A DNA stretch of 64,000 bases. Source: an uncultured Bacteroidales bacterium. GTDB taxonomy: Bacteria > Bacteroidota > Bacteroidia > Bacteroidales > GCA-2748055. The stretch is from positions 12,686 to 76,685 of the forward strand of contig CAVTBM010000011.1 in the NCBI GenBank assembly GCA_963732905.1. The letters are read 5' to 3'. A model generated the notes under the pieces. The model ran no database searches, was not told where the DNA came from, and saw only the letters and a program-made list of their open reading frames with translations. How positions within the stretch are numbered: position 1 is the first letter of the stretch; each line of letters opens with the position of its first letter. Shown here piece by piece: positions 6,828 through 21,198 of the stretch. The position numbers and the translations under genes are program-made.

Positions 6828-6854
6828 TTACCGTCAGTAGTTTCGTACCCAGGA

Positions 6855-7241
6855 GTGCGGGGTTTAGAAGCCAAGATAATAAAATATAAAAGATTTAAAA
6901 ATTTGAGGAACCAATTTGGCACCTTAAGTTGGGGTGGCGTTCGTTATGCCCCAATGGCTTTTACAGAACAGGGTGTAGCCATGCTATCAAGTGCTTTAAA
7001 CAGCCAAAGAGTCATCGCTGTAAACATCCAAATTATACGGATCTTCACTAAAATGCGGGAGTTGTTTTCTACTCATAAAGAAATCCTTCAAAAACTTAAA
7101 CAGCTGTAGAAAAAAGACATAGATCAGGATGAAAAGATCATATTGATTTTTGAATATCTAAAGCAACCGGAAAAAGCCAAACAGGAAGAACCGGACCAAA
7201 AAAATCGCACCTCCATAGGTTACAAGCAAAACAAAAAGTAA
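6855..7241 (+). pseudogene. ORF6N-domain gene fragment: 5'-truncated, with an in-frame TAG
   Basis: WGGVRYAPMAFTEQGVAMLSSALNSQRVIAVNIQIIRIFTKMRE matches the ORF6N core. The N-terminal ~60 aa are missing because the fragment abuts the GH30 start. After TAG at 7107-7109 the same frame continues (KKDIDQDEKIILIFEYLKQ...) to TAA 7239-7241. Confidence 0.65.
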
Positions 7242-7525
7242 TAGTCACCCCCTTCACCTTCCACATATCCGACCCTTCTGCCCCCGATCCCTATCAGGGT
7301 TAGCTTTGGATGTTGCTTAAGAGGTGAAAATGAGGTGGTGCGTTCAGATGATCCGGAGATGAGTTCCTGGATTTTTTCTTTTAACTAAACGGCTAAGCCC
7401 TCATAGCCTGCCCCATTTTAACGGGGAACACCCCTAAAAAATCAATGAAAAGATGAATAACTAATTAAAAACACACAAAAATCTTCAGTTAAAGAGCTCA
7501 ATTAAAAGTCTTCTTGCGATAAAGC

Positions 7526-7556
7526 TTTGGCAGATATTAAAAAAATGCTAATTTTA
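7526..7556 (+). promoter_or_regulatory. Promoter-like box TTTG-N19-TAATTTTA
   Basis: TTTG at 7526-7529 and TAATTTTA at 7549-7556, a 7/8 match to the Bacteroidota -7 consensus TAnnTTTG, with a 19-nt spacer. Identical in all three module copies. Confidence 0.35.
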
Positions 7557-7577
7557 ATCTACGATAGTGTTCGTCCC

Positions 7578-7610
7578 AAACCTGACAGGTTTTAAAAACC
7601 TGTCAGGTTT
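7578..7610. promoter_or_regulatory. Perfect 15-bp stem / 3-nt loop hairpin AAACCTGACAGGTTT-TAA-AAACCTGTCAGGTTT
   Basis: Arms 7578-7592 and 7596-7610 are exact reverse complements. The hairpin lies 21 nt after the -7-like box and 23 nt before ATG 7634. Confidence 0.85.
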
Positions 7611-7633
7611 AGGATGTACTGTTTGATGAAGGC

Positions 7634-8646
7634 ATGATCAACATGAAAAACCAAACGCCTGAATACGAGTATTTTTTAAGGTACCATCCCGGCAATACAC
7701 GTGTTGTATTGAATACAGAAGCACAATTTGTAGAACAACACGATTATTACCCGTTTGGTATGGAGTTCGCCGGACGACAGGGAGGGGATATCAAATACCG
7801 CTATGACGGTAAGGAGCTGCAGGATATGGAAATCGGGGGAAAAGGATTGGATTGGTACGATTACGGGGCACGATTTTATGATTCCCGCATGGGGAAGTGG
7901 AATTCTCAAGAACCTAAAGCCGAATGTTATTATCAACAATCTTTATATATTTATTCAGGGAATAATCCAATATTATTCCATGATTTTGATGGGAATGATT
8001 ACGGCGTTACCATTGATCAAGGGTCAAAAACCATTACCATCAGTGCAGTATATTTATCCGACAAAAAAGGCATGCCAACATTAAGATGATCAGTTAATGA
8101 AATTAATAATTTAAGTGGCAAATATGTTTTTGTGCCAGGTGGAAAAGCTGCAATCAAGACTGGGCAGACAAATGCATATTCTGTCAATTTTCAACTTACT
8201 ACCGACATAGCTGAAGAAAATGCAACTTTTACCGACCAAAATACTGGAGAAACAGTTACATATGGATCCCAAGCGGACAAAATAGCAACTGACGATAACT
8301 CCGGGGTAGTAAATAGCTATAATATCGTTGAGAATGACGATACACCTAAAGCTGGGGGAGCTGGATCAAATCAAATAGATGTTGAATTATCATCCTCAAA
8401 ATCAACTTCGTTTCTAAGCATGAAATTGGACATACTTTAGGAATGGGGCATAGTTCTGGTATTATGGCTCCAGTAGGAGCTGCTGGAAATTTTGATGCGG
8501 GACAAATTCAACAAACCTTGTCAGGTGTAAATATTGGTGGCAACAAACGAAGTGATCCAAATGCCCCTGGAATTGGTAAGATGCTCGGTGGTCAAACAAA
8601 TGAAGGACTTGAAAATGGTCGAGTAATGTCTACAAAAAGACGATGA
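7634..8646 (+). pseudogene. Orphan Rhs/YD C-terminal tip 1 with a metzincin-like metallopeptidase toxin domain (nonsense plus frameshift)
   Basis: RHS core end: EYEYFLRYHPGNTRVVLNTEAQFVEQHDYYPFGMEFAGRQGGDIKYRYDGKELQD...[13 protein letters not shown]. In-frame TGA at 8087-8089, after which the same frame continues to 8440. A frame switch near 8390-8415 leads into the 8389-8646 frame, which encodes HEIGHTLGMGH (8419-8451), an exact HExxHxxGxxH motif. Confidence 0.75.
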
Positions 8647-8675
8647 AAGATTAATGAGAAGATATAAACGGAAAA

Positions 8676-9187
8676 ATGAAAATTAATCATCTTAGAACAA
8701 TCTTAATGTCTGTATTATTAAGTACAGTTAACAATTTTACTTCAGGTCAAACAATATTTGTACCTGAACAAAATGCACTGTTTTTTTTATGGACTCTGTT
8801 TGTCCTGACTATATTAGTACCGATTCAAGAATTTTATTTAATGGAATCGTTAGTCCTAAGCTATCTTATTTTCCAAAACCTTATGGTTGTTTTAACGATA
8901 AAGCATTATTCATTGGATTATTAATAAATTCTCAAAAAAATGATTCATTGAACTATACTAAAAGTATTATCGAATTTCAAGATAAAAAATACTCTTTGTT
9001 AAAATATTCTAAAAAAAGTAATTTAAGAAGACGGCAGTTTGTTATGAAAATTTATCGATCTTCAAAATATAACGAAAATGAATATGTTTTAATTCGTCTT
9101 CAACGTATTGGAGAAACTCTTGATTTCTTTTTTGAACTGAATAAACATGGAAGAGTAATTAGATGGTGTCAAGGCGGCAAATTTTAA
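8676..9187 (+). pseudogene. Immunity-like secreted protein for tip 1, split at a T8 tract
   Basis: The signal-peptide-like start MKINHLRTILMSVLLSTVNNFTSGQ runs into T8 at 8781-8788. The remainder (MDSVCPDYISTD...GRVIRWCQGGKF) is in another frame. One extra T would fuse them into a single ~170-aa protein. Confidence 0.55.
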
Positions 9188-9293
9188 ATATTATTTTTTT
9201 TGTATGGAAATAGCCCTTTCCCAAGGTAGGATATTAAGTATCGTAATTTTGATAGAAAGTTATAAGATTATTTGCTTAATCGCTAAGCCAGGG

Positions 9294-9980
9294 GTGTATG
9301 ATTATGGGTTCCGGTTCTACGATCCTGCAATTGGTCGATTCCCGAGCCTGGATCCCAAAGGCAGATGAGTTTGAAAATCTTTCACCTTACAATTATGCTA
9401 GCAACAATCCCATTACCTGCATTGATTTATGGGGTTTGCAAGGCAAACCCGTAAATGAAATTCGAGATAAAAATGGGAATATTACGGCAGCGACAACTAC
9501 TGCGCAACAGACAACATATATCCCCCCTATTGTGGAATTTGATGTTCCTTTAAGTCAAAATTCTGGAGATAATTTCATTGATAAGGTTTCCGATAATTTA
9601 GGAAATTCATCATCTTTAGTTGAAGCCACTGGAATGATACTTGAAAATACTACCGTAACAAAAACTGGAGCAACTGCTGGAGCCGTAGTTGCTATTGTTA
9701 AAACTTCAGCTGATGCCGCTACAACAGATTTTAGTAATAGCGAAGAAACCGCTGATTTTTTTGAAAACACCACCCAAACTGCTGTTGAAACAGAGCCGGG
9801 CCATTGTGAGCAGCTGTAGATGTAATACTTGAAAATGGAAAAGATAAAAATGGATTGACAAATTTAGACATTGATAGAAAGGATGATGCCTATAGTACAA
9901 ATAAGGACCGACTGGATGCTTACAGTATAATTATGCAATACAACTCTTCAGGCGGATCAGATAAAGATAAGGAAAAATAA
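9294..9980 (+). pseudogene. Orphan Rhs tip fragment starting at (V)YDYGFRFYDP, frameshifted
   Basis: VYDYGFRFYDPAIGRFPSLDPK, then a 1-nt insertion relative to tip 3 (CCCAAAGGCAGAT vs CCAAAAGCAGAT), then ADEFENLSPYNYASNNPITCIDLWGLQGKPVNEIRDKNGNITAATT. TAG at 9817. A third frame is open from 9810 to the TAA at 9978-9980, which abuts the next ATG. Confidence 0.7.
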
Positions 9981-10355
9981 ATGAAAATCGTTGACGCTGT
10001 TTATTATCTCTATTACAGATATTATCGAATTATCAGGAGTATAAGCTTAAAAACCAGCTATTATCAGGTTCGTGTAGTCTTATTTTTCTCGATGATTACA
10101 GGATTTAACATTGTCTCAGTAATTAAGATTCTAGATTTAGAAATAGATTTTAATAGATATTATACTATAGCTATTGCATTAATGTGGTTCTTTTTTTGGT
10201 TACTCTTTTTTTCGAAGTCAACCCGTTTAGAAAGTATATTAAAACATTTTGAAAAAGAAAGTAAAACTCATCAATTGGTTGGCGGAATAGGGGTAATTTT
10301 ATATTCAATAGTTTCTTTTATTATATTTATTACTGTTTTAGGTAATCCATCTTGA
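9981..10355 (+). CDS. Immunity-like small membrane protein (about 3 TM helices)
   Basis: The ATG directly follows the tip stop codon (TAAATG). Hydrophobic segments: VVLFFSMITGFNIVSVI, IAIALMWFFFWLLFF, VGGIGVILYSIVSFIIFITVL. AT-rich. Confidence 0.6.
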   Translation: MKIVDAVYYLYYRYYRIIRSISLKTSYYQVRVVLFFSMITGFNIVSVIKILDLEIDFNRYYTIAIALMWFFFWLLFFSKSTRLESILKHFEKESKTHQLVGGIGVILYSIVSFIIFITVLGNPS

Positions 10356-10606
10356 ATTAAGGCAAAATCTTGATGATTTTGATATCCCGCAAGAAGCACG
10401 AAACTTTCTCACCGGATTGTCCAAAAAGGCCCCATCGGGGTCAGAGAGCGATAGAATAATTGACAGGTAAGGTTCCCCGGCGCCCCATAGGGTGTGCAAC
10501 CAATTTTGAAAAGAGAATAAAGGAAATCTAGATGAAATTCCATAATCTTTGAAAAGAGGGGGCTTGCTTTTAAATTGTATTTTAATACAGGAGAACAGGA
10601 TATGTA

Positions 10607-10946
10607 TTCGATTTTTTATTGTAAAAACCTGAAACCCTCACGCTGATTTTTTCCTCTTTTTCCCATTAATTGGTGAAGCATTCCCGGACAGTTACTTCGT
10701 GTAGTTGCTTTCTAAAGTTATAAAACATTGGTGCGAAAGATTGAAAGCACCCTGATTGTGCGGCGGATATCCAGGCCGGGTCGATTACTGATGGCTGAAG
10801 AATTACAATTCCGGCAGGTACAGTATATGGCAGGGCAAAAGTATGTGAGTTCGACTGAACGGTACCAGCTGAATAACCTGCGTAAATTGCAGAGCAAAAT
10901 AGATAAACCACATCCTTTAGGGAAAATTGAAGATCACAATTTGTGA
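10607..10946 (+). pseudogene. Tyrosine recombinase/integrase 3'-end remnant, copy 1
   Basis: Encodes ...LQFRQVQYMAGQKYVSSTERYQLNNLRKLQSKIDKPHPL, the catalytic-Tyr region of Bacteroidota-type integrases with His replaced by Gln. The frame is broken upstream at ACTGATGGCTGAAGAATTACAAT. Homologous to 16760-17081 and 19890-20222. Confidence 0.7.
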
Positions 10947-11016
10947 CCTCCAACCTGATTCGCAAAATGCGATACCAGGATTAAAAAGTTATTCTCTGTA
11001 ATAAGAATTAAAGAAA

Positions 11017-12051
11017 ATGAGAAAAGCAGTTACCCCTTCATTTGAAGACTTCTACAAAAGGATAAAAGAAATCCTGGAAACAACTCGTACCAGGATCTAC
11101 CAAACGGTAAATTTTGAAATGGTACAGGCCTATTGGAACATAGGCCGGATTGTTGTTGAAGAGGAGCAAAAGGGCAAAGAAAGAGCTGAATACGGCAGCT
11201 ATTTAATAGAAACTCTTTCAGAAAGGCTTACCAAGGAATATGGGAAAGGATTTACAAAGAGCAATTTAAAGTATATGCGACAGTTTTATCAGACTTTTGA
11301 AAAAAGTCACGCACTGCGTGGCGAATTATCCTGGACCCATTATCGCCTGTTGTTAAAAGTTGAAAATAAAAGTGCCCGTGAGTTCTATATCGAAGAAACC
11401 ATAAGGGGGAACTGGAGCACCAGGCAACTTGAACGGCAGATCAACTCTTTGTACTATGATCGCACATTAATGAGCCGGGATAAAAAGGGAATGATCATGG
11501 ATGGGCGGGCGTTGCAGGATAAAATGCAGCCGGAAGATATTATCAAGGACCCATATGTTTTAGAGTTCCTCGATGTAAGAGAAAATGAGAAACTCGCAGA
11601 ACGGGAGCTGGAGTTTGCTCTTATTGAAAAACTACAGCATTTATTACTTGAATTGGGTACTGGTTTTTCTTTTATCAGGCGTCAATACAGAATTACAGCA
11701 GATACAGATCATTTTTTTATTGACCTGGTTTTTTACAATTACATTTTAAAATTCTTTTTACTGATCGATCTTAAAATAGATAAGCTAAGTCACCAGGACA
11801 TAGGACAGATGGACTTTTATGTACGCTTCTTCGAGGAAAATGTAAAACAGCCCGGGGATAATCCAACAATAGGGCTTATTCTCTGTACCGAAAAGAATAA
11901 AACAATTGTTAAGTACAGTCTACTCAATGAAAGCAGGCAGATCTTTGCATCAAAGTATCAGATGTATTTACCAACGGAGAAACAGTTAAAAAAAGAGATC
12001 CAACGAGAGAAAGAACTGATTGAGCAGGAAAAAAAGCTCTCAAAAGAATAA
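11017..12051 (+). CDS. DUF1016/YhcG-family PDDEXK nuclease-like protein
   Basis: N-terminal YQTVNFEMVQAYWNIGRIVVEEEQKGKERAEYGSYLIETLSERLTKEYGKGF and C-terminal nuclease core ELGTGFSFIRRQYRI...FFIDLVFYN...LIDLK are characteristic of this family. Confidence 0.8.
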   Translation: MRKAVTPSFEDFYKRIKEILETTRTRIYQTVNFEMVQAYWNIGRIVVEEEQKGKERAEYGSYLIETLSERLTKEYGKGFTKSNLKYMRQFYQTFEKSHALRGELSWTHYRLLLKVENKSAREFYIEETIRGNWSTRQLERQINSLYYDRTLMSRDKKGMIMDGRALQDKMQPEDIIKDPYVLEFLDVRENEKLAERELEFALIEKLQHLLLELGTGFSFIRRQYRITADTDHFFIDLVFYNYILKFFLLIDLKIDKLSHQDIGQMDFYVRFFEENVKQPGDNPTIGLILCTEKNKTIVKYSLLNESRQIFASKYQMYLPTEKQLKKEIQREKELIEQEKKLSKE

Positions 12052-12134
12052 TTTTCATGTTGTATAAAAACTGCAACTACCGGTTATACAATTTAATTCA
12101 TTAACCAATCACCCTCCCCGCATCCAACCCTTCT

Positions 12135-12242
12135 GCAGCGGTTTTTTGTCATGATTTATCTGCTGGATTTTTTATGCAGGCAGTCCTTTTGCAGTTGCCG
12201 ATTGGGCCGCATATGGCAAAAGCCACGCCCGGAAAGTGCTGC
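12135..12242. repeat. Long imperfect palindrome (cassette-end element), copy with a 31-nt insertion
   Basis: GCAGCGGTTTTTTGTCATG...CCTTTTGCA / TGGCAAAAGCCACGCCCGGAAAGTGCTGC. The inner stem CTTTTGC/GCAAAAG and the outer GCAGC/GCTGC are complementary. Confidence 0.6.
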
Positions 12243-12413
12243 GCCTGATACTTAACAGGGTTGACTTTGGGGCTTACCTAAGTGATTAAAAATGCAGTGG
12301 TCTGTTCAAATAATCCGGGAACAGTCTGGATTTTTTTCTCTTAATTGAAGTAATTGAAAACACAGAAAAATCTTCAGTTAAGGGCTCAATTAAAAGTCTT
12401 CATGCGCTAGAGC

Positions 12414-12444
12414 TTTGGCAGATATTAAAAAAATGCTAATTTTA
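12414..12444 (+). promoter_or_regulatory. Promoter-like box TTTG-N19-TAATTTTA (copy 2)
   Basis: TTTG at 12414-12417 and TAATTTTA at 12437-12444. Confidence 0.35.
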
Positions 12445-12465
12445 ATCTACGATAGTGTTCGTCCC

Positions 12466-12498
12466 AAACCTGACAGGTTTTAAAAACCTGTCAGGTTT
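12466..12498. promoter_or_regulatory. Perfect 15-bp hairpin (copy 2)
   Basis: Same sequence as 7578-7610. Confidence 0.85.
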
Positions 12499-12594
12499 AC
12501 GATGTACTGTTTGATGAAGGCATGATCAACATGAAAAACCAAACGCCTGAATTCGAGTATTTCTTAAAGAGACCATCCCGGTAATACAGGTGTT

Positions 12595-13509
12595 GTGCTG
12601 AATACAGAAGCACAATTTGTAGAACAACATGATTATTACCCGTTCGGTATGGAGTTCGCCGGACGTCAGGGAGGGGATATCAAGTACCGCTATAACGGGA
12701 AAGAACTGCAGGATATGAAAATCGGGGGAAGAGGTTTGGATTGGTACGATTATGGGGCGAGGTTCTATGACCCGGCATTAGGTAGGTGGAATGTTCAAGA
12801 TCCCTTGGCGGAATATCACTTTAACCAATCTCCATATAACTACGTAGAAAATAATCCTTTGCTTTATATTGATCCCTTTGGACTAAATAAAGAAGATCGT
12901 CAAGAAAGAAGAAGACAGAGAAGAGCTAAAAGAAGGAATCAAAAAGTTCCAGAGGACCTAAGATATGATCTACCAGGAGTGGATTGTGTCGGCTCAGCTC
13001 CAAGTACTCCCAAACCCATTGATCCAAAAAATTTAGCTAACAAAGGTGGAACTGTACCTGGGGGCATCTTTCTCTGGAGTATTTTTGGTGAAGGTTCAGC
13101 TGGCATCGGAACTACCAACAAAGATGTCGAAAGCCTTAATCTTGATTGGTTGCTTATTTTGCTTATAGCTCAGCATGGGAGTATCCCCACTGAGAGAATT
13201 GAGGCAATAAATGAAGCAATTGCCAAGGCAAAAAATGCTATAGAGGAAGCTACAGTAACTTCGGATGAAGAGATTTATGAGAAGAATACAGGTAATTCTA
13301 AGGCTGCTAGTCCTCAAAAGAAGACAATTGTGAAAACATATTCAGAGAAATCAAATAAAGAAGTTGTTTCTAAGCGGGGATTTTATAATCGATTTAACAA
13401 GGATACAACCAAACTCTACGAGGTTCGTCCAAAATCAGGTGATACCATTTGGGTATGGCCGACCAATCCTGATGGGACTGTCAAAAATCCACCTGAACCA
13501 TATAAATAA
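12595..13509 (+). CDS. Orphan Rhs/YD C-terminal tip 2 (canonical PxxxxDPxGL, unknown toxin domain)
   Basis: YYPFGMEFAGRQGGDIKYRYNGKELQD...[27 protein letters not shown]...NNPLLYIDPFGL, then an Arg-rich linker RQERRRQRRAKRRNQK and ~190 aa with no motif I recognise. The module ATG at 12522 is out of frame because of a 1-nt insertion (AAAGAGACC vs AAAGGACC) and stops at 12582-12584. Confidence 0.75.
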   Translation: MLNTEAQFVEQHDYYPFGMEFAGRQGGDIKYRYNGKELQDMKIGGRGLDWYDYGARFYDPALGRWNVQDPLAEYHFNQSPYNYVENNPLLYIDPFGLNKEDRQERRRQRRAKRRNQKVPEDLRYDLPGVDCVGSAPSTPKPIDPKNLANKGGTVPGGIFLWSIFGEGSAGIGTTNKDVESLNLDWLLILLIAQHGSIPTERIEAINEAIAKAKNAIEEATVTSDEEIYEKNTGNSKAASPQKKTIVKTYSEKSNKEVVSKRGFYNRFNKDTTKLYEVRPKSGDTIWVWPTNPDGTVKNPPEPYK

Positions 13510-13516
13510 ATTGGTA

Positions 13517-14314
13517 ATGAAAAAAAATTCGTTAATTATTATATTTATTGTTATTGTAAGTAGTTGTCAATGTAATAAGAAAAAGGAATATTATTCTGAC
13601 GGATCGATTAAGATTGAGAAAATTTATTGTAAGAACAACGAACATATTAAAACGATCGAGCACTATCGAAATGGTCTCGTTTCATCGATTACATTTGAAA
13701 ATGTCAAAGGTAATTTAGATGGAAAATGTTCCTATTTTGATAAAAACGGTAATATCGAAAGTTCAGTTGTTTATAAAGATGGTATTTCAGATGGTATAGC
13801 AAAATGGTTTTATCCTAATGGCAAAATAATGGAAGAAGTGTATATAATAAATAAAGAAAGAGTTGGACCTCATATATATTATGATTTATCTGGAAATATA
13901 GTAAGAAAAAACTTTTATATTTTAATAAATAATAAATCATTCTTCAATGGGTATCTAGTTTATAATAAATTTGGAAATATTATTCCCGATTCGTCTATGT
14001 ATGTATTTTTAAAAACTGATAAGGACACAGTTAATATTAACGATACTATAACCTATTGGTTTAATCAATATCTATCAAAAGGGATTCAAGTTAAAGCCAT
14101 TATAGGTAATATTGATAAAAATTTCAATATCGTTGATTCAACCACAATTAAATATGTAAACCCAAATTTAAAAAACAAGTTTTCACCCACAAAAGTTGGA
14201 AATGATACAATTAGGATCATTTATGAATTGAAAAAAGAAACAGCAAATAATACTATTGATAAGATATATAAAGGCCGTATATTACTTGAAAAGATTTTAA
14301 ATGTTAGAGAGTAA
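13517..14314 (+). CDS. Immunity-like lipoprotein with MORN-variant (YwqK-like) repeats
   Basis: Lipobox MKKNSLIIIFIVIVSSC. Repeats YYSDGSIKIEKIY, YFDKNGNIESSVVYKDGISDGIAKWFYPNGKIMEEVY. The YwqK/COG2849 family is a known antitoxin/immunity family. The start is taken at ATG 13517, 8 nt after the tip stop. Confidence 0.65.
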   Translation: MKKNSLIIIFIVIVSSCQCNKKKEYYSDGSIKIEKIYCKNNEHIKTIEHYRNGLVSSITFENVKGNLDGKCSYFDKNGNIESSVVYKDGISDGIAKWFYPNGKIMEEVYIINKERVGPHIYYDLSGNIVRKNFYILINNKSFFNGYLVYNKFGNIIPDSSMYVFLKTDKDTVNINDTITYWFNQYLSKGIQVKAIIGNIDKNFNIVDSTTIKYVNPNLKNKFSPTKVGNDTIRIIYELKKETANNTIDKIYKGRILLEKILNVRE

Positions 14315-14829
14315 ACTGGTATGATTACGGGGCAAGGTTTTATGATCCGGCGATTGCAAGGTGGAATAAAAAAAGACAACAAGACATAAATGATGAATTG
14401 CGACTTCTTTCAATGGTACATAATAAAATAGTTAATAATAATACAGGGAATAATAATGATAAATATCCTGGATGGTCTGGATTAATAGGAATTTCGCTAG
14501 GCAGTCTCGATTTGTGGAATAATATGAAGGATAATTTATTGGCATCAAAATCAATCATAGAAAATCAAATTGAGGAGATTAATGAAAGATTAAAGAACAA
14601 GAATGCATCTTCTTCAGAGGTTGATAAATTACAAAACAATTTGAATGATTTGGTTAAGAAACAAGCTCAAATTGATTCGGTTATTGAAGCTGTCATAAGA
14701 GTTATTGATAATTCTAAAAAATATCAAGAACAATTAACTTCTCCAAGAGATGTCACAAGAACTAGTTCTTCTGGTGAAAATGATTATAAAAAAAGTCTTG
14801 ATATCGTTAAGAAATGGGGAAATGAATAA
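14308..14829 (+). pseudogene. Orphan Rhs tip fragment starting at [11 protein letters not shown], with no start codon of its own
   Basis: The frame opens at 14308, overlapping the stop of the preceding gene: (RVN)[31 protein letters not shown].... It then has an Asn-rich and coiled-coil-like tail (NQIEEINERLKNKNASSSEVDKLQNNLNDLVKKQAQ). The first ATG is at 14398. Confidence 0.65.
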
Positions 14830-14852
14830 AATTGAATTAATTATAGTTAGTT

Positions 14853-15245
14853 ATGAAGCAAGACTATGACGATATTCAGAATATTCTAACGGATTATTAC
14901 TTAAATGATGATTACATTAGTGTAATAAATACATGGGAATCTAAGATAAATTATAAATTATTACCTAAATTCGATAATAAATTACGAAATGAAGTACTTC
15001 ATGCGTTAATTATAAGTTATAAAAAAACCGAGAATATTAAACAGAGCATTTTTTATATAAATAAATATATTAATAAATTGTTAAATAATCATCAAAATGA
15101 AAACTTTGATGAAGAATTGCTTTTCTGTTTTACAGTTCTCGCATCAATATATGCATCTAAACAAAATTATCTAAAAGAATTAAAAACGCTATATAAATAT
15201 AATAAATTTAATAACAAAAATAAAAAAAACAAAAAACCTAATTGA
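14853..15245 (+). CDS. Immunity-like small cytoplasmic protein (helical, Lys/Asn-rich tail)
   Basis: 130-aa ORF 23 nt after the tip stop. Very AT-rich. No recognisable motif. Confidence 0.45.
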   Translation: MKQDYDDIQNILTDYYLNDDYISVINTWESKINYKLLPKFDNKLRNEVLHALIISYKKTENIKQSIFYINKYINKLLNNHQNENFDEELLFCFTVLASIYASKQNYLKELKTLYKYNKFNNKNKKNKKPN

Positions 15246-15261
15246 TGATTTAGAAGTACAT

Positions 15262-15492
15262 TTGTTTAATAAATTTCAGATGATGAACAAATTTTATTCT
15301 TACATATTTATTTCTTTGATAATTTTACATTTGATAATTGAAAATTTTTTTTCAATATCAATTAGTAATAAATTCTTTCTTGTGTTGTGGACAGCTTTTA
15401 TTATATTTTCTATGATATGGATTGTAATCACATTGCTAAATAAAAAACTTGCCTTAAAATTTTTTAGATTTCTTATCAGTGTTGTCCAGTAA
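15262..15492 (+). CDS. Small 2-TM membrane protein (possible second immunity gene)
   Basis: YSYIFISLIILHLIIENFF and FLVLWTAFIIFSMIWIVITLL are hydrophobic helices. The start is uncertain (listed TTG at 15262, ATG at 15280). Confidence 0.4.
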   Translation: MFNKFQMMNKFYSYIFISLIILHLIIENFFSISISNKFFLVLWTAFIIFSMIWIVITLLNKKLALKFFRFLISVVQ

Positions 15493-15605
15493 AACCGGAA
15501 GTTACTAATATTTTACAATCAAATGCCTGAAAATCAATCATACATTTTTCATTTTTCAAAAGCAAGCCCACCTCATTTCCGGGAATAAGGAATTTTCATA
15601 CTCAT

Positions 15606-15701
15606 TCGCTCGTTGTTTGTAAGCCTTCGGCTAACTGCATCTTGAAATAATACCTTCTACCAGTTAGCTTTGTTGCAAAGCAAGCCTTCGGCTAACGAGC
15701 G
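15606..15701 (+). other. Intergenic element: 15-bp direct repeat AAGCCTTCGGCTAAC x2 enclosed by an 8-bp stem
   Basis: Direct repeats at 15621-15635 and 15682-15696. CGCTCGTT (15607-15614) pairs with AACGAGCG (15694-15701). GCTAACTG (15630-15637) pairs with CAGTTAGC (15661-15668). Confidence 0.3.
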
Positions 15702-15868
15702 CCTTTGGTTTCATAGCGTAATGGATCCCTCAAAGAGAATAGCCAGTTCAGACTTTGGTTATTCTTACTCCCTCAATGTCAAGATGTTTTAGCTCCACGA
15801 TTATTGAGTGAAACAAATTTATTTCTAAAGATTTATCTTTACATTTGTAAAACAATGCTTGGAAGATC

Positions 15869-16096
15869 ATGAGGACAATACTGATAAAAATACCCGATAG
15901 TGTTGATATGTCAGACTATGACTTTTCAATGATGATTGCTGCAAAGCTTTATGAAGATAGAAAACTGTCTTCCGGTCAAGCTGCCGAAATGGTTGGTTTA
16001 ACCAAAAGAGCTTTCATAGAAATTCTCGGAAAATACGGAGTTTCGTTGTTCAGCAATTCAATTGATGATCTTCATTCAGATATAGCAAATGCCTAA
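15869..16096 (+). CDS. UPF0175-family antitoxin
   Basis: LSSGQAAEMVGLTKRAFIEILGKYGVSLF is the typical UPF0175 core. There is an 8-nt overlap with the downstream PIN-like gene. A perfect TAnnTTTG box (TACATTTG) sits at 15840-15847. Confidence 0.75.
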   Translation: MRTILIKIPDSVDMSDYDFSMMIAAKLYEDRKLSSGQAAEMVGLTKRAFIEILGKYGVSLFSNSIDDLHSDIANA

Positions 16097-16559
16097 GGTC
16101 ATTATTTCCGATACCAGTGTTCTGAATCTATTTCAAAAAATCAGCAGACTCGACCTGCTTCACGGAATTTATGAAGAGATCATTACAACGCCTGAAGTCG
16201 CAGAGGAATATGGGGACGAGTTACCTATATGGATAAATATTCAAGTAGTTACCGACAGAAAATATCAGGAACTATTGGAATTACAGGTTGACAAAGGTGA
16301 AGCCAGTGCCATCGCACTGGCTAAAGAATATTCAGATGTATTATTATTGCTCTATGATTTAAAGGCCAGGAAATTAGCTACTAAATTGAATTTGAAATAT
16401 ACCGGGACACTTGGTATTATAACGAAGGCAAAGAATAAAGGCTTAATTGAAAAGGTTAAACCTGTCCTGGATAAAATTCAAAAGACAGATTTCAGGATAT
16501 CAGAAAAGATACTTAAAGAGATTCTTTTACTGAATGACGAAGACGTGCAAGAGAGATAA
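16089..16559 (+). CDS. DUF3368-type PIN-like nuclease toxin
   Basis: VIISDTSVLNLF...GEASAIALAKEY...LLLLYDLKARKLATKLNLKYTGTLGIITKAKNKGLI matches the DUF3368 pattern. Note LLYD where LLDD would be typical. Confidence 0.7.
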   Translation: MPKVIISDTSVLNLFQKISRLDLLHGIYEEIITTPEVAEEYGDELPIWINIQVVTDRKYQELLELQVDKGEASAIALAKEYSDVLLLLYDLKARKLATKLNLKYTGTLGIITKAKNKGLIEKVKPVLDKIQKTDFRISEKILKEILLLNDEDVQER

Positions 16560-16622
16560 ATCACATTTGAGCAAGTTATACCTAGGATTGGTATCTGAAT
16601 TTCATCAAGTCTCAAAAAAAAT

Positions 16623-17081
16623 CATTGGTATGATTACGGGGCACGGTTCTATGAACCCCGGCTGGGTAGGTGGCATGTGATTGTTCCGGCCACTGAGGCC
16701 AATCACTTTGAATGGTAACGTTCATATGCCGGGCCTTAAACACATGAGCTCATCACACAAATTCGATTTTTTATTGTAAAAAACCTGAAATCCTCACGCT
16801 GATTTTTTCCTCTTTTTCCCATTAATTGGTGAAGCATTCCCGGACAGTTACTTCGTGTAGTTGCTTTCTGAAATTATAATAAACTGGTGCGAAATCTAGA
16901 ATGCAACCAGATTATGCGGCGGATATCCGGGCCGGGTCGATTTTTGATGGCCGAAGAATTACAATTCCGGAAGGTGCAGTATATGGCAGGTCATAAGTAC
17001 GTGAGTTCTACGGAACGGTAACAGCTGAATAACCTGGATAAGTTGCAGGAACGGATAAACAAATATCACCCGCTGAGTTAA
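16623..17081 (+). pseudogene. Rhs junction stub plus tyrosine recombinase 3' remnant, copy 2
   Basis: [31 protein letters not shown] (16623-16718), then ...KVQYMAGHKYVSSTER*QLNNLDKLQERINKYHPLS*. The catalytic Tyr codon is TAA. Near-identical to 19751-20222. Confidence 0.75.
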
Positions 17082-17131
17082 ACTAAAAGTGAATTTTAAT
17101 CGTTAAATTTGTGTACATAATGAGAGTAAAT

Positions 17132-17368
17132 ATGAATCTTCAGTCCAAAAAATTAGAGCTGGTTCAGCTTATACTGAATACTAAAAAACCCTCTATCCTT
17201 GCCAGGGTTGAAGCTGTACTAAAAGGGAAAGCTGTCGATTGGTGGGATGAGATAAGCCCGGAGGAACGGGAAGCCATAGAAAAGGGCTTATCAGAGGCAG
17301 ATAAAGGAGAGCTTATACCTCATGAAGAAGTCATGAAAGAAGTAAGGGCAAAATATAAGCTCGACTAA
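17132..17368 (+). CDS. Antitoxin partner of the RelE/ParE-family toxin
   Basis: Small acidic protein (WWDEISPEEREAIEKGLSEADKGELIPHEEVMKEV). TAATG overlap with the toxin gene. The start could also be 17111 or 17120. Confidence 0.6.
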   Translation: MNLQSKKLELVQLILNTKKPSILARVEAVLKGKAVDWWDEISPEEREAIEKGLSEADKGELIPHEEVMKEVRAKYKLD

Positions 17369-17664
17369 TGAAGATTAGTTGGACTCCCACAGCAAGAAGG
17401 ACTTATTTTAAAGTTCTCGATTATTTAGCGGAGAACTGGACCAAAAGAGAAGTTGCCCATTTTATAAGCGAAGTTGAAAGCTTATTGAATCAGATCACCA
17501 ACAATCCTGAAATGTTCCAGGCCTCCAGAAAAAAGAAAAGCGTCAGAAAGGCTCTAATCACGAAACACAACGCGCTTTATTACAGGATAAAACCCAGAAA
17601 AAAAGAACTAGAGCTAATCACCTTCTGGGATAATCGCCAAAACCCCAATAAATTAACTTATTAG
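17368..17664 (+). CDS. RelE/ParE-family type II toxin
   Basis: 98 aa. WTPTARRTYFKVLDYL...ALYYRIKPRKKELELITFWDNRQNP is a typical ParE/RelE fold signature. Confidence 0.7.
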   Translation: MKISWTPTARRTYFKVLDYLAENWTKREVAHFISEVESLLNQITNNPEMFQASRKKKSVRKALITKHNALYYRIKPRKKELELITFWDNRQNPNKLTY

Positions 17665-17694
17665 TTATCCACCCTCCCCGCCTCCAACCCTTCT

Positions 17695-17770
17695 GCAGCT
17701 GTTTTTGTCATGCCTTTTGCCGTTGCCGATTGCACCGCGTATGGCAAAAGCCACGCCAAAAAACTGCTGC
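17695..17770. repeat. Long imperfect palindrome (cassette-end element)
   Basis: GCAGCTGTTTTTGTCATGCCTTTTGCC (17695-17721) against GGCAAAAGCCACGCCAAAAAACTGCTGC (17743-17770). About 80% complementary, with a 21-nt loop. Confidence 0.7.
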
Positions 17771-17997
17771 CCCAGGCAACGGTACATAATGTGTCGGTAT
17801 TTGAAACCCTCCACCAGAAACGGGATCTTCCTTCCAACCGGAATTTTTTCTTTTAACTGAACGGCGAAGCCCTCATAGCATACACTGTTTTGACTTGTAG
17901 CACCTCTAAAAAATCAATTAATAGGTAAATAACAAACTGAAAACTCGGAAAAATCTTCAGCTAAAGGGCTCAATTAAAAGTCTTCGTTTGCTAAAGC

Positions 17998-18028
17998 TTT
18001 GGCAGATATTAAAAAAATGCTAATTTTA
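17998..18028 (+). promoter_or_regulatory. Promoter-like box TTTG-N19-TAATTTTA (copy 3)
   Basis: TTTG at 17998-18001 and TAATTTTA at 18021-18028. Confidence 0.35.
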
Positions 18029-18047
18029 ATCTACGATCGTTCGTCCC

Positions 18048-18080
18048 AAACCTGACAGGTTTTAAAAACCTGTCAGGTTT
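18048..18080. promoter_or_regulatory. Perfect 15-bp hairpin (copy 3)
   Basis: Same sequence as 7578-7610. Confidence 0.85.
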
Positions 18081-18103
18081 ACGATGTACTGTTTGATGGA
18101 GGC

Positions 18104-19003
18104 ATGATCAACATGAAAAACCAAACGCCTGAATACGAGTATTTCTTAAAGGACCATCCCGGTAATACACGTGTTGTGCTGAATACAGAAGCACAATTTG
18201 TAGAACAACACGATTATTACCCGTTTGGTATGGAGTTCGCCGGACGACAGGGTGGAGATATCAAGTATCGGTATAACGGAAAGGAAATGCAGGATATGAA
18301 AATCGGGGGGAGAGGGTTGGATTGGTACGATTACGGATTTAGATTTTACGACCCGGCTTTAGGTCGGTTCCCAAGCCTGGATCCAAAAGCAGATGAGTTT
18401 GAAAATCTCTCTCCATACAACTATGCCAGTAACAATCCGGTAACATGTATTGATCTATGGGGAATACAAGGCCGGCCAGTAAATAAAGTTCGAGATCAGA
18501 AGGGAAATATTACAGCTGCTACAACCAGTGCTCAACAGTCAACGTATATTTCTACAATGGAGCCAAAAACTATTAGTAATAACTCAATTGAATTTAAACC
18601 GACAAATGAGTCTATATATCAGAGTGCAAATTGGTGGGAACTTACAACTGCTCCAGATATACAAGAATGGTTAAAAGTTGACAAAGTTCCATCGGCTGTA
18701 GCTGTAGGAGGACTTATAACTGTTCTAAGCGCAGCTGTTCCAGAAGTCATTTCAGGTATAACAGATTTCGGTTCTAATGTCACTTTAAATATTTCTACAT
18801 CAATTGAATCTTCAACAACAATTGCAGTCGGAACTGGTGTGGTAGTGGGTGCTGCTAAAACATTAACTGATGCCCCACCTGATACGCCTGAAATACCTAA
18901 CCCGGTAATAGAGGTTTCTTCAGAAATGACTGAATATATTATTCAATCTACACACGAGTTTATGAAAAATATTCAAAATTCAAATGATAAAAAGTCTAAA
19001 TAG
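18104..19003 (+). CDS. Orphan Rhs/YD C-terminal tip 3 (intact ORF) with a Gly/Ala/Val-rich hydrophobic C-terminal domain
   Basis: MINMKNQTPEYEYFLKDHPGNTRVVLN...YYPFGMEF...GLDWYDYGFRFYDPALGRFPSLDPKADEFENLSPYNYASNNPVTCIDLWGIQG. The tail contains VPSAVAVGGLITVLSAAVPEVISG and TTIAVGTGVVVGAAKTL. Confidence 0.8.
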   Translation: MINMKNQTPEYEYFLKDHPGNTRVVLNTEAQFVEQHDYYPFGMEFAGRQGGDIKYRYNGKEMQDMKIGGRGLDWYDYGFRFYDPALGRFPSLDPKADEFENLSPYNYASNNPVTCIDLWGIQGRPVNKVRDQKGNITAATTSAQQSTYISTMEPKTISNNSIEFKPTNESIYQSANWWELTTAPDIQEWLKVDKVPSAVAVGGLITVLSAAVPEVISGITDFGSNVTLNISTSIESSTTIAVGTGVVVGAAKTLTDAPPDTPEIPNPVIEVSSEMTEYIIQSTHEFMKNIQNSNDKKSK

Positions 19004-19047
19004 AGTTAGAAATAAATTTGTATTTTTAATTCATCAACTCATAATTT

Positions 19048-19269
19048 ATGTGTTTTTTGGATAAAAAAAGGCTTAAATATATCTATTTTTATTTTATGAT
19101 TCTTTGTTTTCAAATTATATTGGTGAGAATATTTGGTGAACCTGATTTATTAAAAACACCAAGCTCATCACAAACTTGGGGAGAAAGTATTAATGATTTT
19201 CCAATATATATGATAACATCGTTATTCTTAACGTTAATATTCTATTTTTTTGATCGCTTCTCTAAATAA
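19048..19269 (+). CDS. Immunity-like 2-TM membrane protein
   Basis: YIYFYFMILCFQIILVRIF and FPIYMITSLFLTLIFYFF helices. AT-rich. 44 nt after the tip 3 stop. Confidence 0.5.
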   Translation: MCFLDKKRLKYIYFYFMILCFQIILVRIFGEPDLLKTPSSSQTWGESINDFPIYMITSLFLTLIFYFFDRFSK

Positions 19270-19284
19270 TAATTACAATGCAAT

Positions 19285-19728
19285 ATGACAAACTTTAGGA
19301 ATATTCGAAATTTAAATATTGTATTTTCATTTATTCTTATAGTTATGTATTTTCGTTCATTACGATATTTAATAATGATTATAACTCATTATAATGTATT
19401 TTTTAAGAGAAGTTACTTTCAAATATTGTTCCTTTCACCTAGATTAGTTGTGTTTATTAATACTTTTAATATAATTATTGGAGTATGTATATTAATAAAT
19501 GCTTTTGCTCTATTAAATAAAATGCAAAAAAGTATAATATTTATTAAAATATTACTTCCAATAAGTGCTATACTAAATTTACCATTTTTCTATAAAAATA
19601 TAATAGACTATGAGGATAATTTACATAAATATGTTAGCCTTGGAATTACAATGTTGATTTATATAATTTATTTAACCACATATCTTTTTTACAATAGTCG
19701 TAAAATCAAGCTTTTATTTACGAATTAA
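19285..19728 (+). CDS. Immunity-like polytopic membrane protein (about 4 TM)
   Basis: Four hydrophobic segments, e.g. NIVFSFILIVMYF, VVFINTFNIIIGVCILINAFALL, VSLGITMLIYIIYLTTYLF. AT-rich. Confidence 0.5.
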   Translation: MTNFRNIRNLNIVFSFILIVMYFRSLRYLIMIITHYNVFFKRSYFQILFLSPRLVVFINTFNIIIGVCILINAFALLNKMQKSIIFIKILLPISAILNLPFFYKNIIDYEDNLHKYVSLGITMLIYIIYLTTYLFYNSRKIKLLFTN

Positions 19729-19750
19729 CATATAATACAAAAAGGATGTA

Positions 19751-20222
19751 AACTGGTACGATTACGGGGCACGGTTCTATGATCCACGCCTAGGTAGGTG
19801 GCATGTTATTGTTCCGGCCACTGAGGCCAATCACTTTGAATGATATCGTTCATATGCCAGGCCTTAAACACATGAGCTCATCACAAAAATTCGATTCTAT
19901 ATTGTAAAAACCTGAATTCCTCACGCTGATTTTTTGCTCTTTTTCCCATTAATTGGTGAAGCATTCCCGGACAGTTACTTCGTAGTTGCTTTCTAAAGTT
20001 ATAATAAACTAGTGCGAAATCTTGAATGCACCCTGATTGTGCGGCAGATATCCGGGCCGGGTCGATTACTGATAGCCGAAGAATTACAATCTCCGGCAGG
20101 TTCAATATATGGGAGGGCATAAGTATGTGAGTTCTACGGAGCGGTATCAGCTCAATAACCTGGGTAAGGTACAGAGCAAATTGGAGAAATATCATCCATT
20201 GTCACATAATAGTCGCAAATAA
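19751..20222 (+). pseudogene. Rhs junction stub plus tyrosine recombinase 3' remnant, copy 3
   Basis: [30 protein letters not shown] (to 19843), then ...KNYNLRQVQYMGGHKYVSSTERYQLNNLGKVQSKLEKYHPLSHNSRK* ending at TAA 20220-20222. The frame is closed upstream by TAG in ACTGATAGCCGAAG. Confidence 0.75.
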
Positions 20223-20262
20223 GTTACCCTAATTGGTAACTTTGAATTAAATTTGTACTTGT

Positions 20263-20574
20263 ATGAGAATAATAAAAGAGAAAACTCTCATTGAATATTG
20301 CCGGAAGAGTAAATACAAGAAGGCGGAGGAATCCTTGAAATCCTGGGTTTATGAGGTAAAATACTCTACCTGGAATAATGTGAATCAGCTGAAACTGAAA
20401 TATAGAAATGCCAGCGTAATAAGTTCAAAAAGAGTAGTTTTCAATATCAAAGGCAATGATTACAGGTTAATCGTAGATATCGAATACAAACTAAAAATAA
20501 TTTTCATTGTCTGGTTTGGGACACATGAGGAATATGTTAGGATAGATGCAAAAACAATAAGATATGAATATTAA
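20263..20574 (+). CDS. higB: HigB-family type II toxin (mRNA interferase)
   Basis: 103 aa. LKSWVYEVKYSTWNNVNQLKLKYRNASVISSKRVVFNIKGNDYRLIVDIEY...FIVWFGTHEEY is the HigB_toxin pattern. Confidence 0.8.
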   Translation: MRIIKEKTLIEYCRKSKYKKAEESLKSWVYEVKYSTWNNVNQLKLKYRNASVISSKRVVFNIKGNDYRLIVDIEYKLKIIFIVWFGTHEEYVRIDAKTIRYEY

Positions 20575-21001
20575 AATATTGAAAACAGAAGAGGAATATA
20601 ACACAGCCTGTGAAAGAATTTATGAGCTGATACATAGTACAGAACAGTCTATTGAGCCTGATAGTCCAAAGGGAGAAGAACTGGAACTTTTGTCCTTACT
20701 TGTAGAAAAATATGAGCAGGAACATAATTATATGGATGCACCGGACCCGGTGGAAGCTATAAAGTTCAGAATGGAACAGATGAATTTAAAGCAAAAGGAT
20801 GTTGCTCCATTATTTGGAGGAAAGACACGAGTGTCAGAAGTCCTTCATGGGAAAAGAGCATTAACGCTTAAGATGATTACTTTATTAAACCGATATCTTG
20901 GCATCCCCCTGGATTCATTAATTAGTGGGAATAAGGACATAAAACTTGAAGCTGAAAATAAAGAGAAGTTACTAAAATATCATCCATCCAGGATTACCTG
21001 A
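20564..21001 (+). CDS. higA: HigA-family HTH antitoxin
   Basis: 11-nt overlap with higB. EEYNTACERIYELI...PDPVEAIKFRMEQMNLKQKDVAPLFGGKTRVSEVLHGKRALTLKMI (Xre-type HTH). Confidence 0.8.
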   Translation: MNIKILKTEEEYNTACERIYELIHSTEQSIEPDSPKGEELELLSLLVEKYEQEHNYMDAPDPVEAIKFRMEQMNLKQKDVAPLFGGKTRVSEVLHGKRALTLKMITLLNRYLGIPLDSLISGNKDIKLEAENKEKLLKYHPSRIT

Positions 21002-21062
21002 AAAGATCTAGGGCCACAATGATTTAAAAATCCACCACTACCCCACTCCCAATCCTTCTGAA

Positions 21063-21133
21063 GCAGTATTTTGGTGTGGCTTTTGCTATGCTCGACGCCA
21101 TCTGCAACTGTAATAGCCACACCAAAATACTGC
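21063..21133. repeat. Cassette-end palindrome, perfect 19-bp arms (fourth, partial module 21031-21140)
   Basis: GCAGTATTTTGGTGTGGCT (21063-21081) is the exact reverse complement of AGCCACACCAAAATACTGC (21115-21133). It is preceded by the leader variant TCCACCACTACCCCACTCCCAATCCTTCTGAA. Confidence 0.85.
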
Positions 21134-21198
21134 ATCACCAGTCTATGTTAACATAATATAAACAGCTGTAATCCTAAAAAGCTTATCTTTGTGTTACT

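Follow-up and report, generated by a model that had tools for sequence, protein, structure and literature searches.

Exchange of C-terminal tips is the means by which polymorphic toxins such as RHS diversify. Both the insertion of a new tip with its immunity gene and the accumulation of old ones downstream have so far been ascribed to unspecified recombination in the core. Arrays of displaced rhs tips were described by Jackson et al. (2009) and Koskiniemi et al. (2014), as cited in PMC5727410, and Steele et al. (2017) remarked that integrase-like genes occur close to Rhs loci, without assigning them a role (PMC5727410). A second system, rAID-1, is described by Ross et al. with one recombinase at the 5' end and with no primase, RHS tail motif or toxin fragments; the word "Rhs" occurs 0 times in that paper (10.1101/471110). 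In this work, we analyze a stretch of 64,000 nucleotides (nt) from an uncultured Bacteroidales bacterium (assembly GCA_963732905.1, contig CAVTBM010000011.1, positions 12,686 to 76,685, forward strand), hereafter called the window, in which a short RHS-coding motif, WYDYG, recurs seven times within an island of small genes. The motif is probably the crossover (attachment, att) site of a family of mobile elements of about 8 kb that integrate into rhs genes, and the copies in the window would be the scars of such integrations. The element is apparently undescribed, with rhs C-terminal displacement and rAID-1 as its closest known counterparts; our literature search, the coverage of which is incomplete, found no description of recombinase elements targeting an rhs coding motif.

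As in rhs C-terminal displacement, and as in rhs orphan arrays, the island contains truncated rhs 3' ends with small putative immunity genes downstream, which share only the core; new tips would likewise push old ones downstream, and displaced tips would be re-usable. A full-length rhs gene stands at the 5' end in two related loci (L105 and L159), whereas the array in the window does not lie directly downstream of such a gene, which is absent there. Unlike in rhs displacement, the shared segment may here be reduced to the motif plus 6-17 nt of non-RHS leader, the core domain continues for 46 residues past the border, and the intact unit carries a primase, two tyrosine recombinases, toxin-antitoxin (TA) or other cargo, and a promoter. 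The likeness to rAID-1 (10.1101/471110; PMC12247911) comprises an XerD-like tyrosine recombinase, co-directional small genes of low guanine-cytosine (GC) content, orphan immunity genes, conserved intergenic motifs, occurrence in Bacteroidales and a proposed active acquisition of genes. In comparison with the published description of rAID-1, the units considered here have two recombinases and a primase each, keep the tips, and are themselves mobile. The island has the at least two co-directional downstream genes of GC <=41% that characterize rAID-1; a 5' XerD-like recombinase at least 44% identical to BF9343_RS08045 is absent from the window, which has only 3' remnants of ~42 codons.

The motif reads TGGTAYGATTAYGG, and it occurs without mismatches at 7853, 12742, 14317, 16626, 18323 and 19754. 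A further copy at 9294 (labelled 9297) reads GTG TAT GAT TAT GG, with 2 mismatches and loss of the Trp codon. All seven copies are on the + strand, and the minus strand of the window contains no inverted TGGTAYGATTAYGG copy as an attC-like partner. Allowing at most 2 mismatches, 9 matches are found, against 1.51 +/- 1.16 expected by chance, and 0 of 100 shuffles reach 9. An earlier note on the window had listed these seven positions as cassette borders, and each of them is where it was placed.

To compare the borders, the seven sites were aligned with +/-150 nt, and ungapped X-drop extension was started at TGG. The long copies (7853, 12742 and 18323) have 170-284 nt in common leftward, as the note had claimed in saying that RHS core continues upstream at three sites, whereas pairs involving 9297, 14317, 16626 or 19754 share just 0-6 nt, in agreement with the abrupt left border claimed for the other four. 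Rightward, similarity spans 11-67 nt, except for 157 nt in the pair 16626/19754. The left borders are therefore coincident, not scattered, and the right borders are scattered. In the short copies, the preceding stop codon lies ~107 nt (9297), 2 nt (14317), 66 nt (16626) and 25 nt (19754) from the motif. GTAAAC stands directly 5' of both 14317 and 19754 (at 14311 and 19748), and the TAA of the YwqK-like MORN-repeat gene 13517-14314 falls within the first of these, again as described before.

The idea that each copy leads into a different tip requires correction for two pairs. The copies at 9297 and 18323 share one tip family (family D9, 80% over 167 nt, right extension 67 nt), and those at 16626 and 19754 continue, as had been recognized, into a common stub (repeat family D8, 92% identity across 157 nt), which encodes WYDYGARFY(E/D)... 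and then enters a remnant of a recombinase of the type called rec2 below.

In protein terms, the motif is inside the RHS core domain and not at the junction of core and tip, judging from TIGR03696, the model of the RHS repeat-associated core domain in NCBIfam (76 positions, cut-off 32.5 bits). The open reading frames (ORFs) 12595-13509 (58.3 bits), 18104-19003 (57.5) and 7634-8089 (43.3) pass the cut-off; ORF 14317-14829 matches model positions 30-69 only and, at 19.9 bits, remains under it. Since the motif aligns to about position 30 of 76, each cassette supplies its own last ~46 core residues. In fact, at 7853, 9297, 12742 and 18323 the protein stays RHS-core-like for ~45 codons further, up to a DPxG-like site; the sites found are IDPFGL, IDLWGI and HDFDGN. 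The role of the motif as a cassette border thus stands, with breakpoints of related-population variants inside it (see below), and its description as a core/tip junction does not.

To find related loci, the RHS core tail was scanned against one genome per species (GTDB representatives), which gave 76 loci; the best matches are 60% identical and come from metagenome-assembled genomes (MAGs) of Bacteroidales and Prolixibacteraceae. These loci contain 147 motif copies, which fall into classes. Full-length rhs genes have more than 800 open codons 5' of the motif; among the related loci described below, L105 encodes a 1261-aa RHS protein with DUF6443 and L159 one of 1599 aa. Classical orphans have 90-400 open codons 5' of the motif, and a distinct class of ~10 copies meets a stop within 20 codons. 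One locus (L004, a Bacteroidales MAG) mirrors the window: TA pairs and short motif copies occur there together with the recombinase fragment, and a stub runs into the same remnant sequence. As a separate observation, L161 (~4070-4122) contains a full-length rhs gene with an internal deletion, in which ..KDHLGNTRVVMDQT is joined to the motif with loss of ~45 core codons.

The intact element was reached through the remnant, which belongs to a family of ~69-aa ORFs with 82 matches, all of 42-121 aa. A profile of this family retrieves 1764 proteins, many of which are tyrosine recombinases of 280-340 aa with a C-terminus that matches the fragment. Scanning metagenomes with the family alignment yielded 80 loci; of the 95 fragment matches, 65 lie within ORFs open for at least 200 codons, and the RHS motif is present in 30 of the 80 loci although these were retrieved through the recombinase alone. 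The full-length protein (rec2) has 2270 homologues at E<=1e-20, of which five listed paralogues are on one 6.25-Mb contig; the cultured Geofilum rhodophaeum has a rec2 homologue as well (P0449). The "recombinase remnant" of the earlier note is therefore the 3'-terminal part of rec2, which is the second tyrosine recombinase gene of two in an element, a link to the motif that had been missed. We had also considered the island to be a plain array of rAID-1 or integron type, in which 3' ends of recombinases serve as repeats between the cassettes, and dropped this idea when intact units were found.

The gene content of the intact unit was read from L105, L154, L159 to L174 and L090; L159 to L172 derive from JGI samples (3300066524, 3300071339, 3300071356, 3300070205, 3300071173, 3300071334, 3300071336, 3300071367 and 3300071270). 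The recurring unit in these metagenome loci is 7.6-8.3 kb long. It begins with the motif, which is followed by the core end and tip and by an immunity-sized ORF, at times with a TA pair. Next come a cI-like helix-turn-helix (HTH) gene on the minus strand, which is divergent, and a DnaG-type primase of ~900 aa, which matches the dnaG model below its cut-off. Two adjacent Xer-like recombinase genes follow, rec1 (~292 aa) and rec2 (~322 aa), the latter belonging to the family of the window's remnants. The 3' part consists of cargo, a CACCC terminator-like block, a promoter, a leader of ~110 nt and then the next motif. The cargo (ORF6N, DUF1016 or ParE/TA) is of kinds also present in the window: L105 has a ParE pair in the same cargo position as window 17111-17664, and L100 has a homologue of the DUF1016 gene 11017-12051 in the same position 3' of intact rec2. 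Each unit thus contains two tyrosine recombinases and a primase at a set distance from the leader-motif junction. In these relatives, the recombinases lie near one end and TGGTAYGATTAYGG is at both junctions, as in a site-specific integrative element; the window does not have this arrangement.

At L173/L174 (ENA ERZ25039495 contig_49773, 5.296-5.341 Mb) at least 5 intact elements stand in tandem on the 6.25-Mb contig, and L001 is from this sample too. The tip differs in each unit of this array, one being a Tae4 amidase, all junctions are of the leader type, and the array end adjoins insertion sequence elements. Scans of IMG/VR with rec2 and with the fragment alignment found no relatives, and there is thus no evidence in that database for a phage or satellite link.

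In these loci, a conserved leader of ~110 nt stands 5' of the short motif copies. The leader has the form CAATTAAAAG-AAAAAAG.TGCTAYTTTTG ... GTTCTTTGAAC ... AAAAANNGCGTAAGT and is followed directly by the TGG of the motif; its last eight bases, GCGTAAGT, are at least 90% conserved across 30 distinct sites. The CAATTAAAAG..TGCTAYTTTTG block heads the leader in ~25 metagenome loci and is the same block as the promoter-like region of the window. The leader stands before 18 of 18 motifs located 0.5-1.8 kb 3' of an intact rec2, and motifs 5.4-6.7 kb 5' of rec2 come either after RHS core or after a further leader; the upstream gene in L105 is the 1261-aa RHS gene. This asymmetry between leader and core is as would be expected of attL and attR. 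The junction is nucleotide-precise across rec2 proteins of 63-94% identity. A comparison of the attR-type left arm (ATTGGCGTAAGT) with the attL-type left arm (TTTGGGTTGGAT) shows 6 of 12 positions in common, a weak indication of a candidate binding arm common to both.

The short copies in the window retain 6-17 nt of non-RHS leader of the GCGTAAGT or GTGTAAAT type left of the motif, and that at 16626 has a shortened leader, as after the same TA pair in L078. These conserved remnants indicate that the coincident border of the short copies is largely inherited from one element-borne junction; an independent origin of their left borders was dropped once the conserved leader had been found.

Some leaders also have coding features. 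One variant (L154 7468-7560; L163 12102-12194; L098, L102, L140, L142 and L146) encodes a conserved peptide of ~31 aa, MGC.KLA....LRCVW....K..VN, in frame with WYDYG, so that displaced tips may be translated as proteins of 260-290 aa. The other variant carries a stop codon in frame, five codons 5' of the motif. The motif Trp codon is replaced by ATG, TTG or CTG in several loci.

Variants in related populations locate the exchange itself. The element with rec2 P0345 is present in L163 and in L165, which are unrelated chromosomal sites with flanks that differ on both sides. Its two copies agree at 99.8% over 7784 nt; identity extends from 12 nt before the left motif to 71 nt after the right motif. 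The right motif of the second site (L165) has TAT at positions 10-12, where the element's own motif has TAC. As the target's T at position 12 was kept, the crossover was left of position 12. At the P0375 locus, L160 has one unit more than L159, and the ends of the repeated unit fall within GT|TGGTACGATTATGGGGC (19 nt). The junction in L161 is a hybrid, with TGGTAT from one parental motif and GGCACGG from the other; the switch falls between positions 6 and 15, inside GATTATGG, with 8 nt between the flanking single-nucleotide polymorphisms (SNPs). L168 has two copies against one in L163, and L163 and L164 are alike up to motif position 13 and wholly different from position 14. In L154, identity between the two units is 99.7% over the stretch that starts at the primase ATG and runs to motif+32, and the tips between them are unrelated. 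In sum, the exchanged units are bordered by the motif, breakpoints lie within the first 14-19 nt of it, one and the same unit is found at different sites, and tandem copy number varies. The search for alternative cassettes in population data that the earlier note had suggested thus bears out a common crossover point, which is narrower than the ~35 nt of core-coding sequence proposed there.

Four metagenome contigs are of unit length or slightly longer and have terminal direct overlaps of 93-127 nt (L090, 8901 nt; L141, 8900; L100, 10927; L089, 13792). With exactly one leader-motif junction and one full gene set, L090 is what would be predicted for a circular form, and a collapsed tandem repeat would fit too.

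These variants bear on the view that the motif has no role in recombination, that is, that the window contains independent rhs remnants whose coincident borders are an artefact of coding conservation. We regard this as very improbable. Rightward similarity does decay codon-wise, as under purifying selection. However, three of the four short copies have no space for hidden core, with a stop 2-66 nt away, and their intervening bases match the leader rather than the core; 9297 and 18323 share a tip, with a core tail in only one of them; and the population variants, which differ exactly at the motif, contradict this view.

A more serious alternative, unlikely in our judgment yet deserving real weight, is classical C-terminal displacement, in which RecA-dependent homologous recombination acts at the longest near-identical stretch of rhs, and the recombinase and primase genes are passengers or use another site. 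The literature attributes such arrays to core-region recombination (PMC5727410). Coding reasons account for the strong conservation of the motif in both contexts, and L009, L020 and L060 have short motif copies without detectable element genes. In addition, orphan arrays with 90-400 core codons and no nearby recombinase dominate the genome loci, so that homologous recombination in the core is clearly at work in this group. Against this explanation, the identity at the mapped events is just 16-19 nt, and 8 nt in L161. Identities of 8-19 nt are a poor substrate for RecA. Moreover, the nucleotide-conserved leader-motif junction is found at 0.5-1.8 kb from the two recombinase genes, an arrangement typical of an integrase beside its att site, and an identical element is found at two sites with both ends in the motif.

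It is also conceivable, although improbable, that the recombinases, promoter and leader-motif junction form a fixed capture platform of the integron or rAID type, in which these parts stay in place (like intI, Pc and attI) and tip-immunity cassettes, excised from rhs loci elsewhere, are captured at the motif. The order of recombinase, promoter and co-directional low-GC small genes matches the description of rAID-1 (10.1101/471110; PMC12247911), and motif-delimited cassettes free of backbone are seen both in the window (7853-9297 and 12742-14317-16626) and in L163 (at 13296, 14315 and 18295). However, the whole unit of tip, immunity gene, primase and both recombinases duplicates in tandem and recurs at a second site, and arrays carry a full backbone per cassette. 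Note that a platform and a mobile element are not exclusive, since recombination between two motifs could yield bare cassettes in either case.

If the motif is an att site, rec1 and rec2 would be the enzymes that catalyse the exchange there. Recombination in the first ~14 nt of the motif would place the incoming tip in frame behind the core of the resident RHS, so that each integration fuses the tip of the element to the resident protein. The old tip and its immunity gene would be shifted downstream, behind the element's promoter and leader, and from this position the displaced immunity gene could still be transcribed if, as we suppose, the promoter is active. The small ORFs would confer immunity, the primase may replicate an excised form of the element, and repeated integration events would produce tandem arrays.

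Other parts of the data weigh against an att site at the motif. No dyad symmetry was found around it. The window, without an intact recombinase, primase or full-length rhs gene, holds nothing active, and the mechanistic case rests on relatives whose RHS tails are at most 60% identical to those of the window. The long copies of the window have 220 nt of RHS core in the place of the leader, which needs an extra event. Where intact rec2 has at least 2.5 kb of downstream sequence, only 9 of 23 cases show a pattern-matching motif, and the arrays without the motif in L078 mean that the recombinases need not act only there. Among the loci examined, no empty target site was recovered and no contig was shown to be an excised circle; the circular-looking contigs may be collapsed tandems. 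Where a breakpoint is defined by one SNP only, mismatch repair or gene conversion could have blurred it.

The arrays in L078 (5400-15900; ENA ERZ25039483 contig_10288) consist of co-directional TA, ORF6N and Fic cassettes with repeats of ~700 nt between them. The repeats correspond to the CACCC block and the last third of rec2, and no RHS motif lies between the cassettes, which implies a second route of array building from the same element parts.

The island in the window extends from 6855 to ~21900. Its GC content is 20-41% in nearly every 600-nt interval, against ~50% in the flanks, and its genes are all on the + strand. It is bordered on the left by a predicted glycoside-hydrolase-like ORF (4347-6827) and on the right by an SDR gene (22015-22872), both on the minus strand. 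The island (6855-21900) contains no full-length rhs gene, the longest ORF being at most 344 aa, no intact recombinase and no primase; RHS core homology ends 73-80 codons 5' of the motif.

The island is made up of three tandem remnants of one unit, with an ORF6N remnant at its left end and an MNT/HepT-like pair at its right. Each remnant has a conserved block that opens with CACCC..CCAACCCTTCTGCAGC and closes with a terminator-like hairpin, then a promoter-like TTTG-N19-TAATTTTA and a 33-nt palindrome. There follow ~220 nt of RHS core tail, the motif, and one or two modules of tip and small ORFs split by short motif copies. The last part consists of a motif stub, a recombinase-like remnant of ~350 nt, and cargo (DUF1016/YhcG, a ParE pair or HigBA). 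The window is thus a decayed tandem array of three units that have no HTH gene, primase or rec1 and lack most of rec2; what is left are the promoters, five tip families, putative immunity genes and the TA, DUF1016 and ORF6N cargo. Without a full-length rhs gene, the locus is at most an immunity and TA island and a tip reservoir. The junction between stub and rec2 remnant, seen at 16626, at 19754 and in L004, looks like a propagated deletion derivative, which would have lost the tip, immunity gene, HTH gene, primase, rec1 and two thirds of rec2.

The promoters of the island are predicted from a consensus sequence. In Bacteroidetes, the promoter consensus is TTTG/TAnnTTTG. In promoter-like region 1 (7497-7556, + strand; CTCAATTAAAAG), a -33 TTTG at 7526-7529 is separated by 19 nt from a -7 TAATTTTA at 7549-7556; this region and its counterparts at 12385-12444 and 17969-18028, also on the + strand, are putative promoters of the Bacteroidetes type. 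A sigma-70 scan gave 76 promoter-like sites against 59 expected and is uninformative for Bacteroidetes. Each of the three units has a perfect 33-nt palindrome, AAACCTGACAGGTTTTAAAAACCTGTCAGGTTT, which lies 3' of the promoter-like box and 5' of the core tail (7578-7610, 12466-12498 and 18048-18080). It is absent from the 171 other fetched loci, except for the same-population contig L001, and may be either a local regulator or a small hairpin element that was inserted. The GC-rich block that follows the cargo occurs four times on the + strand. Copy 1 (7243-7400; CACCC..CCGACCCTTCTGC, found by motif search, repeat families D6/D12) ends in a hairpin and a T-run, copy 2 (12090-12340) includes the hairpin at 12312-12332, the only useful result of the terminator scan, and copies 3 and 4 are at 17650-17860 and 21030-21130. 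The block is also found 3' of the cargo in L078, L105 and L164. Rfam gave no match at the gathering threshold in 6800-22000, so that the block is not a known RNA.

Searches of the tips and small ORFs against Pfam and NCBIfam were informative only for MORN_2 (13517-14314) and TIGR03696, and the putative toxin and immunity functions in the window are assigned by position only. All features in the following description are on the + strand. The left end of the island, where GC drops, is marked by the ORF6N remnant (6855-7240; Pfam ORF6N), which has an internal stop and represents cargo of the leftmost element; the ORF6N cargo of L163 is 48% identical over 116 aa to window 6888-7229 (tblastn).

In unit 1, the core tail of long copy 1 (7634-7852; TIGR03696, 170-284 nt in common with the other long copies) leads to motif copy 1 (7853-7866) and tip A (7867-8646), which is frameshifted in the ORF list. 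A motif search found HEIGHTLGMGH at 8419-8451 of this tip, a metzincin-type HExxHxxGxxH zinc-protease motif, and tip A was probably a metallopeptidase toxin prior to its decay. It is followed by a putative immunity gene (8789-9187), which is placed by its position after the tip and has no Pfam match, by motif copy 2 (9294-9307), the short copy in which Trp is lost, by tip B' (9308-9980), a frameshifted homologue of tip B (18337-19003; family D9), and by an ORF for a putative membrane immunity protein (9981-10355) with no family match. The motif stub is missing from this unit; instead, 10356-10580 is a stretch of 225 nt without similarity to other fetched sequence. The rec2 3' remnant copy 1 (10581-10946; families D2-D5) matches residues 282-321 of full-length rec2 (tblastn), and the cargo position is taken by a DUF1016/YhcG PDDEXK nuclease gene (11017-12051; Pfam).

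Unit 2 has its core tail (long copy 2; TIGR03696) at 12595-12741 and motif copy 3, also long, at 12742-12755. The core domain remainder, to IDPFGL, and tip C (12756-13509) are followed by the MORN-repeat (YwqK-like) putative immunity gene (13517-14314; Pfam MORN_2) and by motif copy 4 (14311-14330), a short copy with the 6-nt leader remnant GTAAAC. Tip D (14331-14829), with the weak TIGR03696 match, is coiled-coil-like and has no DPxG site; two small AT-rich ORFs behind it (14853-15492, GC 20-27%) are putative immunity genes. The next 376 nt (15493-15868) are non-coding and include a 64-nt, 81% match on the opposite strand to L002 18545-18608. A UPF0175/DUF3368 TA pair (15869-16559; Pfam) precedes motif copy 5 with its 30-codon stub ending HFEW* (16626-16715), and L078 at 4091 likewise has a UPF0175/DUF3368 pair and then a short-leader motif. 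In rec2 3' remnant copy 2 (16737-17080), the TERY codon is mutated to a stop, and the cargo is an antitoxin/ParE-type TA pair (17111-17664; Pfam ParE_toxin).

Unit 3 consists of the core tail of long copy 3 (18104-18322; TIGR03696), motif copy 6, which is long and reads WYDYGF (18323-18336), the core domain remainder and tip B (18337-19003), and two membrane-protein ORFs (19048-19728, GC 23-26%) as putative immunity genes. In public data for this lineage, short forms are far more numerous than full-length carriers: 106 of 106 database relatives of tip B plus core end are 125-395 aa long, and 0 are full-length RHS proteins. Motif copy 7 (19738-19843) has a ~16-nt leader remnant, CAAAAAGGATGTAAAC, and a stub ending HFE*. 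It is followed by rec2 3' remnant copy 3 (19864-20204), which is frameshifted, by a HigB/HigA TA pair in the cargo position (20263-21001; Pfam), and, after post-cargo block copy 4, by the MNT/HepT-like pair (21199-21725) at the end of the island.

Several other systems resemble the intact unit in part. The elements e14 and phage 21 integrate inside a gene, icd, and supply a replacement 3' end. As in these, the integrase genes lie beside the att site, a short core is present at both junctions, and an in-frame substitute 3' end is provided; unlike in these, the substitute is a new toxin plus an immunity gene rather than a near-copy, and there are no phage genes. A further difference lies in the target, a conserved coding motif present in multiple copies, which would lead to an accumulation of tandem arrays. 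Two-recombinase systems are known in Tn554 and in XerC/XerD at dif, and an Xer-like pair would similarly suit an asymmetric site. With integrons, the unit shares a promoter-proximal site, co-directional promoterless cassettes, TA cassettes in long arrays and a tyrosine recombinase. It differs from them in having no attC-like inverted repeat of the motif and in using a protein-coding motif as the site; against the integron-type integrase model, rec1 scores 106 bits (cut-off 265) and rec2 has no match. The gamma-mobile-trio (GMT) islands of Gammaproteobacteria have three recombinases and carry antibacterial toxins and defence cargo. They are likewise multi-recombinase mobile islands with toxins, but have no rhs-motif target, and the match of rec1 to GmtY (NCBIfam) is 32 bits, far under the 340-bit cut-off.

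The window itself is a dead array, which supplies at most immunity and TA functions to its host. Beyond it, we lean slightly towards a large, undescribed family of small replicative-integrative elements of Bacteroidota whose att site is an RHS-core coding motif and in which each integration swaps the toxin domain. If this is true, tip exchange in Bacteroidota would be an active, element-driven process, with a site of ~14-30 bp and two candidate enzymes, and rAID-like or orphan-immunity islands such as that in the window would be decayed tandem insertions. The logic of the element would be to bring a new weapon together with its antidote, a promoter for the old antidote, and a TA pair for retention. 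In-frame domain swapping is a possible application of the site and the recombinase pair. For the RHS family in Bacteroidota, such elements would supply the missing enzymatic mechanism of rhs C-terminal displacement.

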